From Escherichia phage PSK1, in sequence record PP541512.1: 39,615 nucleotides of DNA, one strand, 5' to 3'. The stretch's first letter is position 1, and each line of letters starts with the position of its first letter. The notes beneath the pieces were generated by a model. That model did not search any database, was not told the origin of the DNA, and saw only the letters and a list, made by a program, of their open reading frames with translations. Positions 19,109 through 21,881 of this stretch are shown piece by piece. Position numbers and translations under genes: made by a program.

Positions 19109-19130
19109 CTTAACTATCACTATAGGACTC
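19109..19130 (+). promoter_or_regulatory. Phage RNAP promoter directly upstream of the RNAP gene (CTTAACTATCACTATAGGACTC)
   Basis: Consensus match (initiating GGA); followed by two AGACTC(C/T)AAGTGAAAGAC direct repeats. Confidence 0.55.
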
Positions 19131-19199
19131 AAGGTCTAAGACTCCAAGTGAAAGACCAAAGAGACTCTAAGTGAAAGACTAATAACAAGGACTTTAAGT

Positions 19200-21881
19200 A
19201 TGAGCGTCATCTCTATTGACAAACATGACTTCTCTGATGTGTCGAACGCCATTGAGCCGTTTAACCTGCTGGCTGACCACTACGGGCAAGACCTTGCAGT
19301 CAAACAGCTTCAGCTTGAGCATGAGGCATATACAGAAGGCGAGCGACGTTTCATCAAGAACCTTGAGCGGCAGACTGAGCGCGGGGAACTGGCAGACAAT
19401 CAGGTCGCCAAGCCTTTGATGCAGACTCTGGTCCCTAAGATTGCGCAAGCCGTCAGGGAGTGGCACGAAGGCCTAGACGGGAAGCTGTCAACCTCGCGTC
19501 CTAGCGTAGCGTTCACCATGTTGAGCACTGAAGAGAAGGCCGTAAAGGACCGCTCTATGCGCATCTCATGTGAGTCCGCTGCGGTTATCATACTGAAGGT
19601 CATACTCTCCAAGCTGGTCAAGCCTGAAGGGATACCGATTACACCGATGGCCTCCGCGATAGGTCGCACACTTGAGGACGAAATCCGCTTCGGTCGCATC
19701 CGTGACAAAGAGAAGGAGCACTTCAAGAAGGCGATAGCTGAGAACCTGAACAAGCGAGCTGGGGCATCCTACAAGAAAGCCTACATGCAAGCGGTCGAGG
19801 CGTCCATGCTGGAGCAAGGCCAACTGGAAGATGCATGGGGGACTTGGAGTCCTACAGAGGCTGTCCACGTTGGCATCAAGATGCTCGAGATTGTCATCCA
19901 GTCAACACAACTGGTCGAGCTTAAGCGGTACGGTGCTGGTAATGCAGCGGCTGACGTAGAGATGGTCCACCTGTCAGACTTCTGGGTCAAGAAGATGGCA
20001 CAACGAGGATTCAGCCTTGCGGGTATCGCTCCAGTCTACCAGCCTTGCGTCGTTCCACCTAAGCCGTGGACTGGTGTCGTAGGTGGGGGGTACTGGGCCA
20101 AAGGTCGCAGACCGTTACCATTGATTCGCTTAGGGTCTAAGTCTGCGGTAGCACGTTATGAAGACGTATACATGCCTGAAGTCTATGACGCTGTGAACAT
20201 CATTCAGAATACACCTTGGAAAGTTAACAAGAAGGTATTGGACGTGGTGAACATGGTCGAGAAGCTGAACAACACGCCTATTAATGACATCCCTCAGATG
20301 GAACCGCTGAAGCCTGAGGACTATGCTGGTGAAACCGAGGAGGAACTCAAGGCATGGAAGAAGGCTGCTGCTGGTATCTATCGCCGCGAGAAGGCCAGAC
20401 AGTCACGCAGATTGTCCATGAGTTTCATCGTATCACAGGCCAACAAGTTCTCACAGTTTAAGGCCATCTGGTTCCCGTACAACATGGATTGGCGAGGTCG
20501 TGTCTACGCTGTCCCGATGTTCAACCCTCAGGGTAACGACATGCAGAAGGGTCTACTGACTCTGGCGGTCGGAAAGCCTATCGGGGCGGATGGTTTCAAA
20601 TGGCTTAAAGTCCACACCGCCAACTGCGCGGGTGTCGATAAGGTAACCTTTGAGGAGCGTATCAAATGGGTGGAAGACAATCACGAGAACATTCTGGCAG
20701 CAGCCAAATCACCGATGGACAGCATCGAGTGGTGGGGGAGTATGGACAGCCCCTTCTGCTTCCTAGCGGCTTGCTTCGAGTATTCTGGGGTGATGAACCA
20801 TGGCTTGACCTACAATTGCTCACTTCCGATTGCCTTCGACGGCTCGTGTTCGGGGATTCAGCACTTCAGCGCGATGCTGAGGGACCACGTAGGCGGACAT
20901 GCAGTGAACTTAACGCCGTCTGGTCAGGTGCAGGACATCTACCGTATAGTCTCAGACCGTGTGTCAGACCAGTTGAAAGAGCTATTACTGAGCGGTACGG
21001 ACGACGAGCTGGTGACCGTAGAGGACAAGAAGACTGGGGAAATCAGCGAACGCCTGAAGCTTGGGACCAAGAGTCTTGCGCGTCAGTGGCTGACATACGG
21101 TATGTCACGCAAGGTCACTAAGCGTTCAGTCATGACTCTGGCATACGGGTCGAAAGAGTACGGATTCGCAGACCAAGTTTACGAGGACATCGTGATGCCA
21201 GCGATTGACTCAGGGTCTGGCGCTATGTTCACTGAACCAAGCCAAGCGTCTCGCTTCATGGCTAAGATGATTTGGGAAGCTGTGAGTGTGACAGTAGTTG
21301 CTGCGGTTGACGCGATGAAGTGGCTTCAAGGTGCCGCCAAGCTGCTGGCTGCTGAAGTGAAGGACAAGAAGACTGGTGAAATCCTGAAGCCATGCCTTCC
21401 GGTACACTGGGTCACACCTGATGGGTTCCCGGTCTGGCAGGAATACCGCAAGAAGGATACCACTCGTCTGAACCTGATGTTCTTAGGGTCCTTCAACCTT
21501 CAACCTACGGTCAACAAAGGTACGAAGAAAGAGCTGGACAAGCACAAGCAGGAGTCAGGCATTAGCCCGAACTTCGTCCACTCACAAGATGGTAGCCACC
21601 TCCGCAAGACTGTAGTCCACACTCACCGAAAGTATGGCGTGATGTCATTCGCAGTGATTCACGATAGCTTCGGGACCATCCCGGCTGACGCTGAGTATCT
21701 GTTCCGTGGCGTCCGTGAGACGATGGTAGAGACTTACCGCGATAACGATGTGCTGCTTGACTTCTACGAGCAGTTTGAATACCAGCTTCATGAAAGTCAG
21801 CGCGACAAGTTGCCTGAGCTTCCGAAGAAAGGTAAACTGAATATCGAAGACATCTTGTCTTCAGACTTTGCATTCGCTTAA
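19200..21881 (+). CDS. Single-subunit DNA-directed RNA polymerase (gp1)
   Basis: 893 aa; identical blocks with T7 RNAP as remembered (FQPCVVPPKPWTG, WFPYNMDWRGRVYAV, FDGSCSGIQHFSAMLRD, VHSQDGSHLRKTVV, IHDSFGT, C-terminal FAFA). The specificity-loop segment diverges from T7. Confidence 0.95.
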   Translation: MSVISIDKHDFSDVSNAIEPFNLLADHYGQDLAVKQLQLEHEAYTEGERRFIKNLERQTERGELADNQVAKPLMQTLVPKIAQAVREWHEGLDGKLSTSRPSVAFTMLSTEEKAVKDRSMRISCESAAVIILKVILSKLVKPEGIPITPMASAIGRTLEDEIRFGRIRDKEKEHFKKAIAENLNKRAGASYKKAYMQAVEASMLEQGQLEDAWGTWSPTEAVHVGIKMLEIVIQSTQLVELKRYGAGNAAADVEMVHLSDFWVKKMAQRGFSLAGIAPVYQPCVVPPKPWTGVVGGGYWAKGRRPLPLIRLGSKSAVARYEDVYMPEVYDAVNIIQNTPWKVNKKVLDVVNMVEKLNNTPINDIPQMEPLKPEDYAGETEEELKAWKKAAAGIYRREKARQSRRLSMSFIVSQANKFSQFKAIWFPYNMDWRGRVYAVPMFNPQGNDMQKGLLTLAVGKPIGADGFKWLKVHTANCAGVDKVTFEERIKWVEDNHENILAAAKSPMDSIEWWGSMDSPFCFLAACFEYSGVMNHGLTYNCSLPIAFDGSCSGIQHFSAMLRDHVGGHAVNLTPSGQVQDIYRIVSDRVSDQLKELLLSGTDDELVTVEDKKTGEISERLKLGTKSLARQWLTYGMSRKVTKRSVMTLAYGSKEYGFADQVYEDIVMPAIDSGSGAMFTEPSQASRFMAKMIWEAVSVTVVAAVDAMKWLQGAAKLLAAEVKDKKTGEILKPCLPVHWVTPDGFPVWQEYRKKDTTRLNLMFLGSFNLQPTVNKGTKKELDKHKQESGISPNFVHSQDGSHLRKTVVHTHRKYGVMSFAVIHDSFGTIPADAEYLFRGVRETMVETYRDNDVLLDFYEQFEYQLHESQRDKLPELPKKGKLNIEDILSSDFAFA

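Follow-up and report, generated by a model that had tools for sequence, protein, structure and literature searches.

Does the RNA polymerase (RNAP) of a K1F-like phage transcribe its own gene? In the textbook T7 scheme, the host RNAP comes first and makes the phage RNAP, and the phage enzyme then takes over. The question arose from the 39,615-nucleotide sequence of Escherichia phage PSK1 (PP541512.1), which is referred to here as the window; it is a circularly permuted Kayfunavirus genome (K1F-like, a T7 relative). Gene 1 (19200 to 21881, plus strand) encodes a single-subunit RNAP of 893 amino acids (Pfam RNA_pol, E = 1.6e-106; RPOL_N, E = 2e-15), and alignment of its specificity loop places N, N, and Q at T7 positions 748, 756, and 758. 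The region that contains it (18500 to 22000) is 99.3% identical to Kayfunavirus LI10P1. Read in the sequence, the gene 1 start consists of the Shine-Dalgarno element AAGGA (19187 to 19191), an 8-nt spacer, and the ATG (together 19187 to 19202, plus strand). Its 15-nt AGGACTTTAAGTATG agrees at 15 of 15 nt, from Shine-Dalgarno to ATG, with the translation initiation region of T7 gene 1.1. An earlier note on this DNA had described a near-consensus phage promoter shortly before gene 1, followed by two direct repeats, and had proposed that the promoter lets the RNAP amplify its own synthesis.

The promoter upstream of gene 1

The whole window was searched for TTAACTATCACTATAGGA with up to three mismatches, which returned 10 sites, all on the plus strand, where 0.01 would be expected by chance. 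The left-most phage promoter of the genome is the site before gene 1, ACTTAACTATCACTATAGGACTC, which spans 19108 to 19130 (plus strand, positions -17 to +6) and was supported by motif match, matrix score, and conservation. Its CACTATAGG core with G at +1 lies at 19118 to 19126, on the same strand as all genes and the other promoters, and its GGA start is class II-like, as in the middle-region promoters. The presumed +1 is G19125, where GGACTC begins, 75 nt upstream of the gene 1 ATG (19200); with the 3' edge of the promoter 69 nt before the ATG, the distance of 70 bp given in the earlier note is a fair description.

On a weight matrix derived from the nine remaining sites, the gene 1 site scored 30.2 bits, the lowest of the ten on a matrix made without it. 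The nine sites themselves scored 31.5 to 36.0 bits, the best further site 25.3 bits, and everything else at most 17.7 bits. When each of the ten was left out in turn, the scores spanned 28.4 to 34.4 bits, a range that includes the gene 1 site. The site departs from the consensus by a T at -14 and by its GGACTC start (+3 to +6), and because of these departures the gene 1 promoter may be weak. A sigma-70 scan found no host promoter overlapping it in the manner of T7 promoter C. No phiOL-like promoter was found between the physical left end of the genome (about 16301) and 19108, leaving this Kayfunavirus genome without such a site.

Conservation was then compared among relatives. Across 14 distinct K1F-type sequences, none of the 23 promoter columns varied, compared to 4 of the 13 columns just upstream. 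An own-type promoter was present 74 to 80 nt before gene 1 in all 20 K1F-like IMG/VR loci that have an RNAP identity of at least 87% and retain the region upstream of gene 1. Citrobacter phage CR8 (RNAP identity, 78%) has one about 85 to 86 nt before its annotated gene 1 start, and 219 deposited phage genomes contain the cassette. Among the IMG/VR loci, those of T7-, T3-, or K11-like type all lacked an own-type promoter before gene 1; Berlin-like phages were also without such a promoter, and no SP6-type promoter precedes the RNAP gene of SP6. A motif-free recount in representative loci agreed on the presence or absence of the promoter, and when the CR8 RNAP served as the query for another search of loci, the lineages already seen came back without any new intermediates.

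The promoter also follows the specificity of the polymerase. In the window and in K1F, the loop N748/N756/Q758 pairs with ACTAT at -12 to -8. Two loci resembling Cronobacter phage GW1 (L016 and L039) carry the loop D748/R756/Q758, as in T3, and have ACCCT at -12 to -8 in all of their promoters, the gene 1 site included, while in CR8 the loop K748/Q756/R758 pairs with the specificity region GGTAC. In every compared case, the site before gene 1 carries the version that is cognate to the RNAP loop. These comparisons suggest that the gene 1 site is under selection as a promoter, having changed in step with the specificity loop in two independent shifts of specificity. Because the site is invariant while its flanks vary, and because it tracks the changes in the specificity loop, we consider it likely that 19108 to 19130 is a functional promoter for the phage's own RNAP and drives gene 1. 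The near-consensus promoter of the earlier note is thus borne out as a full member of the ten-site set that is invariant in K1F-type relatives and co-varies with the specificity loop.

Transcription of gene 1 and a proposed feedback loop

Two host sigma-70 early promoters lie to the left of gene 1 on the plus strand. The first (16725 to 16761), read in the sequence and mapped by blastn, is the homologue of the EcoDS1 "host RNAP promoter" at 469 to 505. The second (16866 to 16904; TTGACA, 18 nt, TAGTAT), mapped in the same way to EcoDS1 609 to 647, is the best sigma-70 match in the scan, at 10 of 12 positions. The early terminator TE (24085 to 24114, plus strand), a 13-bp stem followed by a T-run after the ligase gene, is the homologue of EcoDS1 TE at 7668 to 7697. 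Going downstream from the early promoters, TE is the first hairpin of terminator type; no terminator-like site was found between these promoters and TE, and none between +1 and gene 1. Farther right on the same strand are genes for a gp2-like inhibitor of host RNAP (24956 to 25132; PHROG 1307, E = 1.2e-24) and a gp3.5-like amidase, or lysozyme (26552 to 27013; PHROG 822, E = 3e-81).

By homology with T7 and EcoDS1, the host RNAP would start at 16725 and 16866, transcribe ocr, several small genes, and then gene 1, and stop at TE, with the 16725 promoter as the putative source of the first gene 1 transcripts and thus of the first RNAP molecules. The phage RNAP would then initiate at G19125 and produce a transcript in which a 75-nt, largely unstructured, A-rich leader is followed by gene 1 and the middle genes. 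Gene 1 would in this way act as a natural "autogene," whose self-amplifying transcription persists after gp2 shuts off the host RNAP; once the gp2-like protein has ended host-driven transcription of gene 1, the phage promoter would be its sole source. The gp3.5-like amidase is a candidate brake on the loop, by analogy with the binding of T7 lysozyme to T7 RNAP, and would presumably restrain it late, as for T7 class II promoters.

The arrangement has the features of an autogene, namely, a cognate promoter directly upstream of gene 1, no terminator between the two, and no stable hairpin in the leader. We read the wiring as one of positive feedback since promoter and gene lie on the same strand, are separated by a leader of 75 nt, and have no terminator-like site between +1 and the gene. 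The enzyme can therefore probably boost its own synthesis through the gene 1 promoter. The K1F RNAP and the PK1F promoter function as an orthogonal expression pair (PMC12218169; PMC4299498). A literature search, which the K1F genome paper lay outside, turned up neither mapped 5' ends of transcripts nor in vitro transcription or mutant data for any Kayfunavirus, and nothing specific on a K1F or Kayfunavirus promoter upstream of gene 1 or on a transcriptome.

Another role for an active promoter has to be weighed. The site could have been selected to serve as a replication origin of the T7 type or a primer promoter, or as an entry point for middle-gene transcription and genome internalization, with the extra gene 1 mRNA as a by-product. 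The best match in the whole T7 genome, both for the promoter and leader together and for the leader alone, is phi1.1B with the gene 1.1 leader (leader-only score, 52; next unrelated match, 41; mean, 17; standard deviation, 4.7), in line with the shared initiation region. This stretch of T7 is the AT-rich part of its primary origin. The lack of a phiOL-like promoter to the left of 19108, the single canonical primase site TGGTC on the minus strand of the leader, and the conservation of the leader, as strong as that of coding sequence, also fit such a role. However, the AT content of the leader (62%; genome, 49.8%) falls within the 53 to 69% of the other nine promoter-downstream regions, and a single primase-like pentamer is unremarkable. 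We regard selection for origin or entry function as possible but improbable. Since every transcript from the gene 1 promoter must cross gene 1, feedback would follow whatever else the promoter does. Such transcripts would also cover the downstream middle genes and could prime replication.

The leader and its direct repeats

The predicted transcript of gene 1 by the phage RNAP begins with a 75-nt leader (19125 to 19199, plus strand), characterized by its fold and conservation. It is 45% A over +7 to +70, and 5 of 69 columns vary among the 14 distinct K1F-type sequences, which is the conservation level of coding sequence. Its predicted fold (-12.8 kcal/mol) was no better than that of shuffled sequences (z = -0.01; second estimate, z = -0.17). 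Neither single-sequence folds nor a consensus fold revealed covarying or significant structure in the leader, and an Rfam scan of 18700 to 19500 gave no family matches at E values up to 1.

The two direct repeats after the promoter are exactly as the earlier note had described them: AGACTCCAAGTGAAAGAC (19139 to 19156) and AGACTCTAAGTGAAAGAC (19162 to 19179), each of 18 nt, where 0.08 would be expected at up to three mismatches. Read in the sequence, they belong to a 23-nt tandem duplication on the plus strand, with unit 1, AGACTCCAAGTGAAAGACCAAAG, at 19139 to 19161 and unit 2, AGACTCTAAGTGAAAGACTAATA, at 19162 to 19184. The two units are identical at 19 of 23 bases, and Tandem Repeats Finder, whose threshold lies above two copies at this identity, did not report them. 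Among relatives, the variation sits at repeat positions 6 and 7, and the diverged leaders of CR8 and of a further group of Kayfunavirus loci (L011-type) carry similar pairs of repeats. A genome-wide role for the repeat motif was considered and rejected, as AGACTNNAAGT is confined to 19139 and 19162, apart from one partial site at 2852. A pause or termination signal of the T7 class II kind was likewise rejected: ATCTGTT occurs once inside gene 1 (21697), and the 4 sites in the window against 6.2 expected are at chance level.

The repeats may be read as degenerate copies, arranged in tandem, of the translation initiation region of gene 1, acting as a ribosome standby site or enhancer or, through mini-ORFs, tuning the translation of RNAP. 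Each unit has ARRGACTYYAAGT followed by GTG, where the real start has AAGGACTTTAAGT and then ATG, and two mini-ORFs result, from GTG19148 to TGA19174 and from GTG19171 to TAA19182. The motif ACTYTAAGT recurs in paired copies in the diverged L011-type and CR8 leaders, and the unstructured, highly conserved state of the gene 1 leader would suit such a function. On the other hand, the first GTG is missing in both GW1-like loci, the units carry weak Shine-Dalgarno-like elements, the motif is restricted to the gene 1 leader apart from the partial match at 2852, and the literature yielded no experimental support for a role in translation. Translational control by the repeats is therefore doubtful in our view. 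Comparably speculative is a broader proposal, in which the leader would be more than a passive 5' untranslated region. Its quasi-palindromic tandem copies of the initiation region would form an autogene control element, either a standby or mini-ORF device for RNAP dosage or a T7-type primary origin that has been moved here and links self-transcription with the priming of replication. On that view, the promoter ahead of gene 1 would represent another form of early-to-middle switch in the Studiervirinae, perhaps the ancestral one, which T7, T3, and K11 have lost.

The earlier note had also suggested that the repeats are a processing site, which would be a site for RNase III, or another RNase, before gene 1, equivalent to T7 R1. 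The start of the leader, GACTCAAGGTC, resembles the R1.1-type site that follows the 22431 promoter, and 19128 to 19165 can fold into a small hairpin with stems of 3, 5, and 3 bp separated by internal loops (-9 kcal/mol; z = -1.97). T7 R1 lies in the corresponding position, and its region folds with a z of -2.05. Against this, the leader as a whole folds no better than shuffles, and none of the 13 predicted pairs showed compensatory changes across 10 diverged leaders. Genuine RNase III-type hairpins in the window are far stronger (17005 to 17075, z = -3.65; 17335 to 17400, z = -3.25; 22450 to 22495, z = -4.18), with upper stems of 9 to 12 bp in place of the short stems of the leader. The L011-type and CR8 leaders fold differently from that of the window, and the leader matched no Rfam family. 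Both the stable irregular hairpin and the structure conserved among relatives that mark T7-type R sites are thus absent from the gene 1 leader, and this part of the earlier note is not upheld; we regard processing at the repeats as quite unlikely. Least credible of all is that 19108 to 19130 is a chance or relic promoter-like sequence without activity, a reading that its departures at -14 and +3 to +6 and its last place among the ten sites would fit, but which its chance expectation, its invariance beside varying flanks, and its passage through two independent changes of RNAP specificity speak strongly against.

Comparison with known systems

The promoter upstream of gene 1 is real, ordinary, and already known, and the window adds no new kind of element. 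In the EcoDS1 record (NC_011042), a "phi" promoter is annotated at 2244 to 2266 before gene 1; it is the homologous element, with the identical 23-bp ACTTAACTATCACTATAGGACTC at the same position in a phage of the same genus. The CR44b and PE3-1 records list a "promoter" at the same place. Compared to these three phages, the window differs in nothing of substance and is another isolate; the records annotate the site without function or experiment. The gene 1 promoter is thus no unrecognized peculiarity, being annotated in EcoDS1 and CR8 and listed in CR44b and PE3-1, with self-amplification already proposed for LUZ100 and phiA318. What the present analysis usefully adds is comparative evidence of selection on the gene 1 site as a promoter.

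If the feedback operates as proposed, the T7 scheme gains a direct self-amplifying step in Kayfunavirus and Caroctavirus phages and in at least some T7-like phages of Pseudomonas. Self-amplification could shift the timing and dosage of RNAP and would make gene 1 expression independent of the host RNAP once gp2 acts. This bears on quantitative models of T7-like infection, on the engineering of K1F-type therapeutic phages, and on synthetic circuits that use the K1F RNAP and promoter.

The T7 record itself lists only the E. coli promoters A1 to A3, B, and C as host promoters ahead of gene 1. The statement in the earlier note that T7 gene 1 is driven only by host promoters fits this list, but the record also has the T7 promoter phiOL (405), at the left end of the genome and about 2.8 kb upstream of gene 1, and access of the phage RNAP to gene 1 is in principle not unique to the window. 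T7 phi1.1B, the best sequence match to the window cassette, lies downstream of gene 1 in T7. CR8 (Caroctavirus; HG818824, 3356 to 3378) resembles the window in its predicted own-type promoter before gene 1 and in a leader with two ACTTTAAGT-type repeats. It differs in its GGTAC specificity region and K748/Q756/R758 loop, and its leader, unlike that of the window, folds into a stable hairpin (z = -2.8).

The same logic is found in engineered form, where the polymerase transcribes its own gene from a cognate promoter; the original T7 autogene construct is reportedly that of Dubendorff and Studier (1991). The synthetic autogene, in which a T7 promoter drives T7 gene 1, is a concept in use (PMC6395690; PMC1500874), whereas the arrangement in the window is natural, would be primed by host promoters, and is embedded in a lytic program. 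In a vibriophage of another lineage, phiA318, a promoter predicted upstream of the kinase and RNAP genes has been interpreted as autoregulation (PMC4099482); there, the promoter also precedes the kinase gene and is a prediction only. In LUZ100, phi1 lies directly upstream of the RNAP gene, its start was mapped by ONT-cappable-seq, and positive feedback after initial host transcription was proposed (PMC10134795). LUZ100 and the window share a phage-specific promoter that transcribes, or in the window is predicted to transcribe, the phage RNAP gene. However, LUZ100, a phage of Pseudomonas, is distant and shows temperate features, and a MarR-like repressor has been proposed to gate its loop (PMC10134795), while no repressor or lysogeny module was seen in the window.

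The promoter upstream of gene 1

Over 18500-22000, the window shares 99.3% identity with Kayfunavirus LI10P1 and 92-98% with many K1F-like coliphages. Gene 1, the ORF at 19200-21881 (+), codes for a single-subunit RNA polymerase (RNAP; Pfam RNA_pol, E 1.6e-106). When phage EcoDS1 is placed on the window, its terminal repeat and left end fall at 16301 and beyond (repeat region 16301-16480), indicating that the window represents a T7-type linear genome in circularly permuted form. This puts gene 1 ~2.9 kb away from the physical left end, and the promoter at 15704-15726 is, owing to the permutation, a phiOR-like promoter of the right end. 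A TATCTGTA motif follows the terminal repeat at ~16480, the site of a concatemer junction in the EcoDS1 annotation. The window also contains a 108-aa gp0.38-like ORF at 18776-19102 (PHROG 7066); the K1F reference (NC_007456) has no CDS annotated between gene 0.6 and gene 1 (2209-2565), and its matching reading frame appears truncated.

A phage RNAP promoter, ACTTAACTATCACTATAGGACTC, is located at 19108-19130 (+); transcription presumably starts at G19125 (+1), which leaves 75 nt to the gene 1 ATG at 19200. An 18-mer taken from it occurs ten times in the window at ≤3 mismatches, always on the + strand, where chance predicts 0.01. A weight matrix made from the remaining nine sites gave the gene 1 promoter 30.2 bits, compared with 31.5-36.0 for the nine themselves, 25.3 for a site at 27249, and at most 17.7 for everything else. 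These results bear out the earlier note, which had placed a phage promoter just before gene 1. The gene 1 promoter starts with GGA, as do the other early/middle-region promoters at 22431, 24163, and 25130, while the phiOR-like site at 15704 and all but one of the five late-region promoters start with GGG. The degenerate eleventh promoter-like site, CCTAAACTATCACCTTAGGGATG (27249-27271, +), departs from the consensus at -4 and -3 and is possibly weak or even inactive; the gene 4-like ORF at 27322 is 50 nt downstream of it.

Co-variation of promoter and RNAP loop

Conservation was analyzed in 80 IMG/VR loci encoding RNAP relatives, with the promoter consensus derived separately for each phage; a site matching the consensus of its own phage is called own-type. 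An own-type promoter was present 74-80 nt before gene 1 in all 20 K1F-like loci retaining the upstream region (RNAP identity, at least 87%) and 86 nt before the annotated gene 1 start of Citrobacter phage CR8 (RNAP identity, 78%). None of the T7-like, T3-like, and K11/KP32-like loci (57-63% identity) had one before gene 1. A motif-free recount of recurring 16-mers gave the same absence in representative loci and in the Berlinvirus references BA14 and Kvp1, whose curated records annotate no phage promoter in that place; such a promoter is likewise absent before the RNAP gene of SP6. Across 14 distinct K1F-type sequences, all 23 promoter columns were invariant, versus 4 variable columns among the 13 immediately upstream.

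At the positions corresponding to T7 residues 748/756/758, the RNAP loops of the window and K1F carry N/N/Q, and their promoters read ACTAT at -12 to -8. Two Cronobacter phage GW1-like loci (L016 and L039) carry D/R/Q, as T3 does, with ACCCT in all promoters, and CR8 carries K/Q/R with GGTAC promoters. In all three groups, the cognate promoter version stands before gene 1. On this comparative evidence, we consider loop-promoter co-variation the decisive point for a working promoter, and the gene 1 promoter is almost certainly real. The GW1-like loci combine a K1F-like RNAP backbone (87% identity) with a T3-type D748/R756 loop and T3-type ACCCT promoters, and we interpret them as a natural specificity switch inside the clade. 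K1F RNAP and the PK1F promoter are a demonstrated orthogonal expression pair (PMC12218169, PMC4299498).

The repeated leader

The leader between +1 and the ATG (19125-19199) holds two 18-nt direct repeats, exactly as the earlier note gave them; each is the core of one 23-nt copy of a tandem duplication (19139-19161 and 19162-19184). It is conserved like coding sequence (5 of 69 columns vary) and has an A content of 45% over +7 to +70. Paired ACTYTAAGT-type repeats also occur in the otherwise diverged leaders of CR8 and of the relatives' locus type L011. Each repeat unit consists of ARRGACTYYAAGT followed by GTG, in place of which the real gene 1 start has ATG; the unit thus resembles a degenerate version of the region where gene 1 translation initiates. 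The repeats create two mini-ORFs on the + strand, GTG19148-TGA19174 (8 codons) and GTG19171-TAA19182 (3 codons), and the GTG of the first is missing from L016 and L039.

Promoter and leader could alternatively serve as a replication origin or primer. Within the whole T7 genome, the cassette at 19108-19202 best matches 5905-6009, which comprises phi1.1B and the gene 1.1 leader. This stretch is also the top T7 match of the leader itself (score, 52; next, 41; mean, 17), and AGGACTTTAAGTATG, spanning Shine-Dalgarno to ATG, is identical at 15 of 15 nt in the gene 1 and T7 gene 1.1 leaders. The likeness suggests that the two cassettes are shared or shuffled. In T7, this stretch is part of the primary replication origin, and because the leader's top match falls there, an origin or primer role is kept alive as a rival; the AT content of the leader, however, is unexceptional among PSK1 promoter leaders.

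The repeats had also been proposed as a processing site, a proposal that the structural analysis does not sustain: shuffled sequences fold as well as the leader does (z = -0.01 for 81 nt; z = -0.17 for 146 nt), a consensus fold of ten diverged leaders showed no compensatory changes, no Rfam family matched, and the best local hairpin (19128-19165; z = -1.97) has short stems of 3, 5, and 3 bp. Such a site is unlikely because this hairpin is weak beside the three strong T7-type RNase III-like hairpins of the window, all on the + strand, at 17005-17075 (z = -3.65; before an 84-aa ORF), 17335-17400 (z = -3.25; before ocr), and 22450-22495 (z = -4.18; after a phi1.1-like promoter and closely resembling T7 R1.1).

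The predicted transcription circuit and its precedents

Annotated host promoters of EcoDS1 have homologues in the window in two host sigma-70 promoters, at 16725 and 16866 (+). Downstream of these, no terminator-like hairpin comes before the early terminator TE (24085-24114, +), after the ligase gene, so the initial gene 1 mRNA can come from host RNAP, as it does in T7. The earlier note had described T7 gene 1 as driven by host promoters only; the T7 record indeed has E. coli promoters there, but phiOL, at the left genome end ~2.8 kb upstream of gene 1, is an exception. No phiOL-like site was found in the window between the left end and 19108, making the gene 1 promoter the left-most phage promoter. 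As neither a terminator nor a stable hairpin lies between +1 and the ATG, any initiation at 19125 must transcribe gene 1 and then the middle genes. By analogy with T7, a gp2-like inhibitor of host RNAP (24956-25132) would leave the phage promoter as the sole late source of gene 1 mRNA, and a gp3.5-like amidase (lysozyme; 26552-27013) would damp it. Positive feedback of RNAP on gene 1 is a reasonable, putative reading of this sequence arrangement; the gp2 and lysozyme steps, like the size of any feedback, are inferred. In the 3' part of gene 1 (21697-21703, +) stands ATCTGTT, the core of the class II pause signal of T7 RNAP, a motif at chance frequency in the window (4 sites versus 6.2 expected).

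The promoter before gene 1 has already been recorded in genome annotations. EcoDS1 has the same promoter annotated as 'phi' (2244-2266, before gene 1 at 2336), CR8 has a 'predicted promoter' (3356-3378), CR44b and PE3-1 have a 'promoter' feature under the match, the K1F type genome holds the identical site, and the cassette was found in 219 deposited genomes. Own-type promoters, one or two per locus, also precede gene 1 by ~85-190 nt in two Pseudomonas T7-like phage loci (93-190 nt when counted from where the matched motif starts): L118 (5542-5660) has two TAAAAACCCTCACT promoters in tandem, and L082 (3208-3230) has one. Their leaders also hold TAAGAC and CTTTAAG words, and in the related vB_PsyP_3MF5 two promoter features lie under the match covering the upstream region and RNAP gene. 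Positive feedback is not new as an idea either: in LUZ100, a promoter directly before the RNAP gene was mapped by transcription-start sequencing and an explicit positive-feedback model was given (PMC10134795), and 'autoregulation' was proposed for phiA318 (PMC4099482). The remaining interest lies in the conserved, repeated leader of what would be a natural autogene, the circuit logic of which is the same as that of the synthetic T7 autogene.
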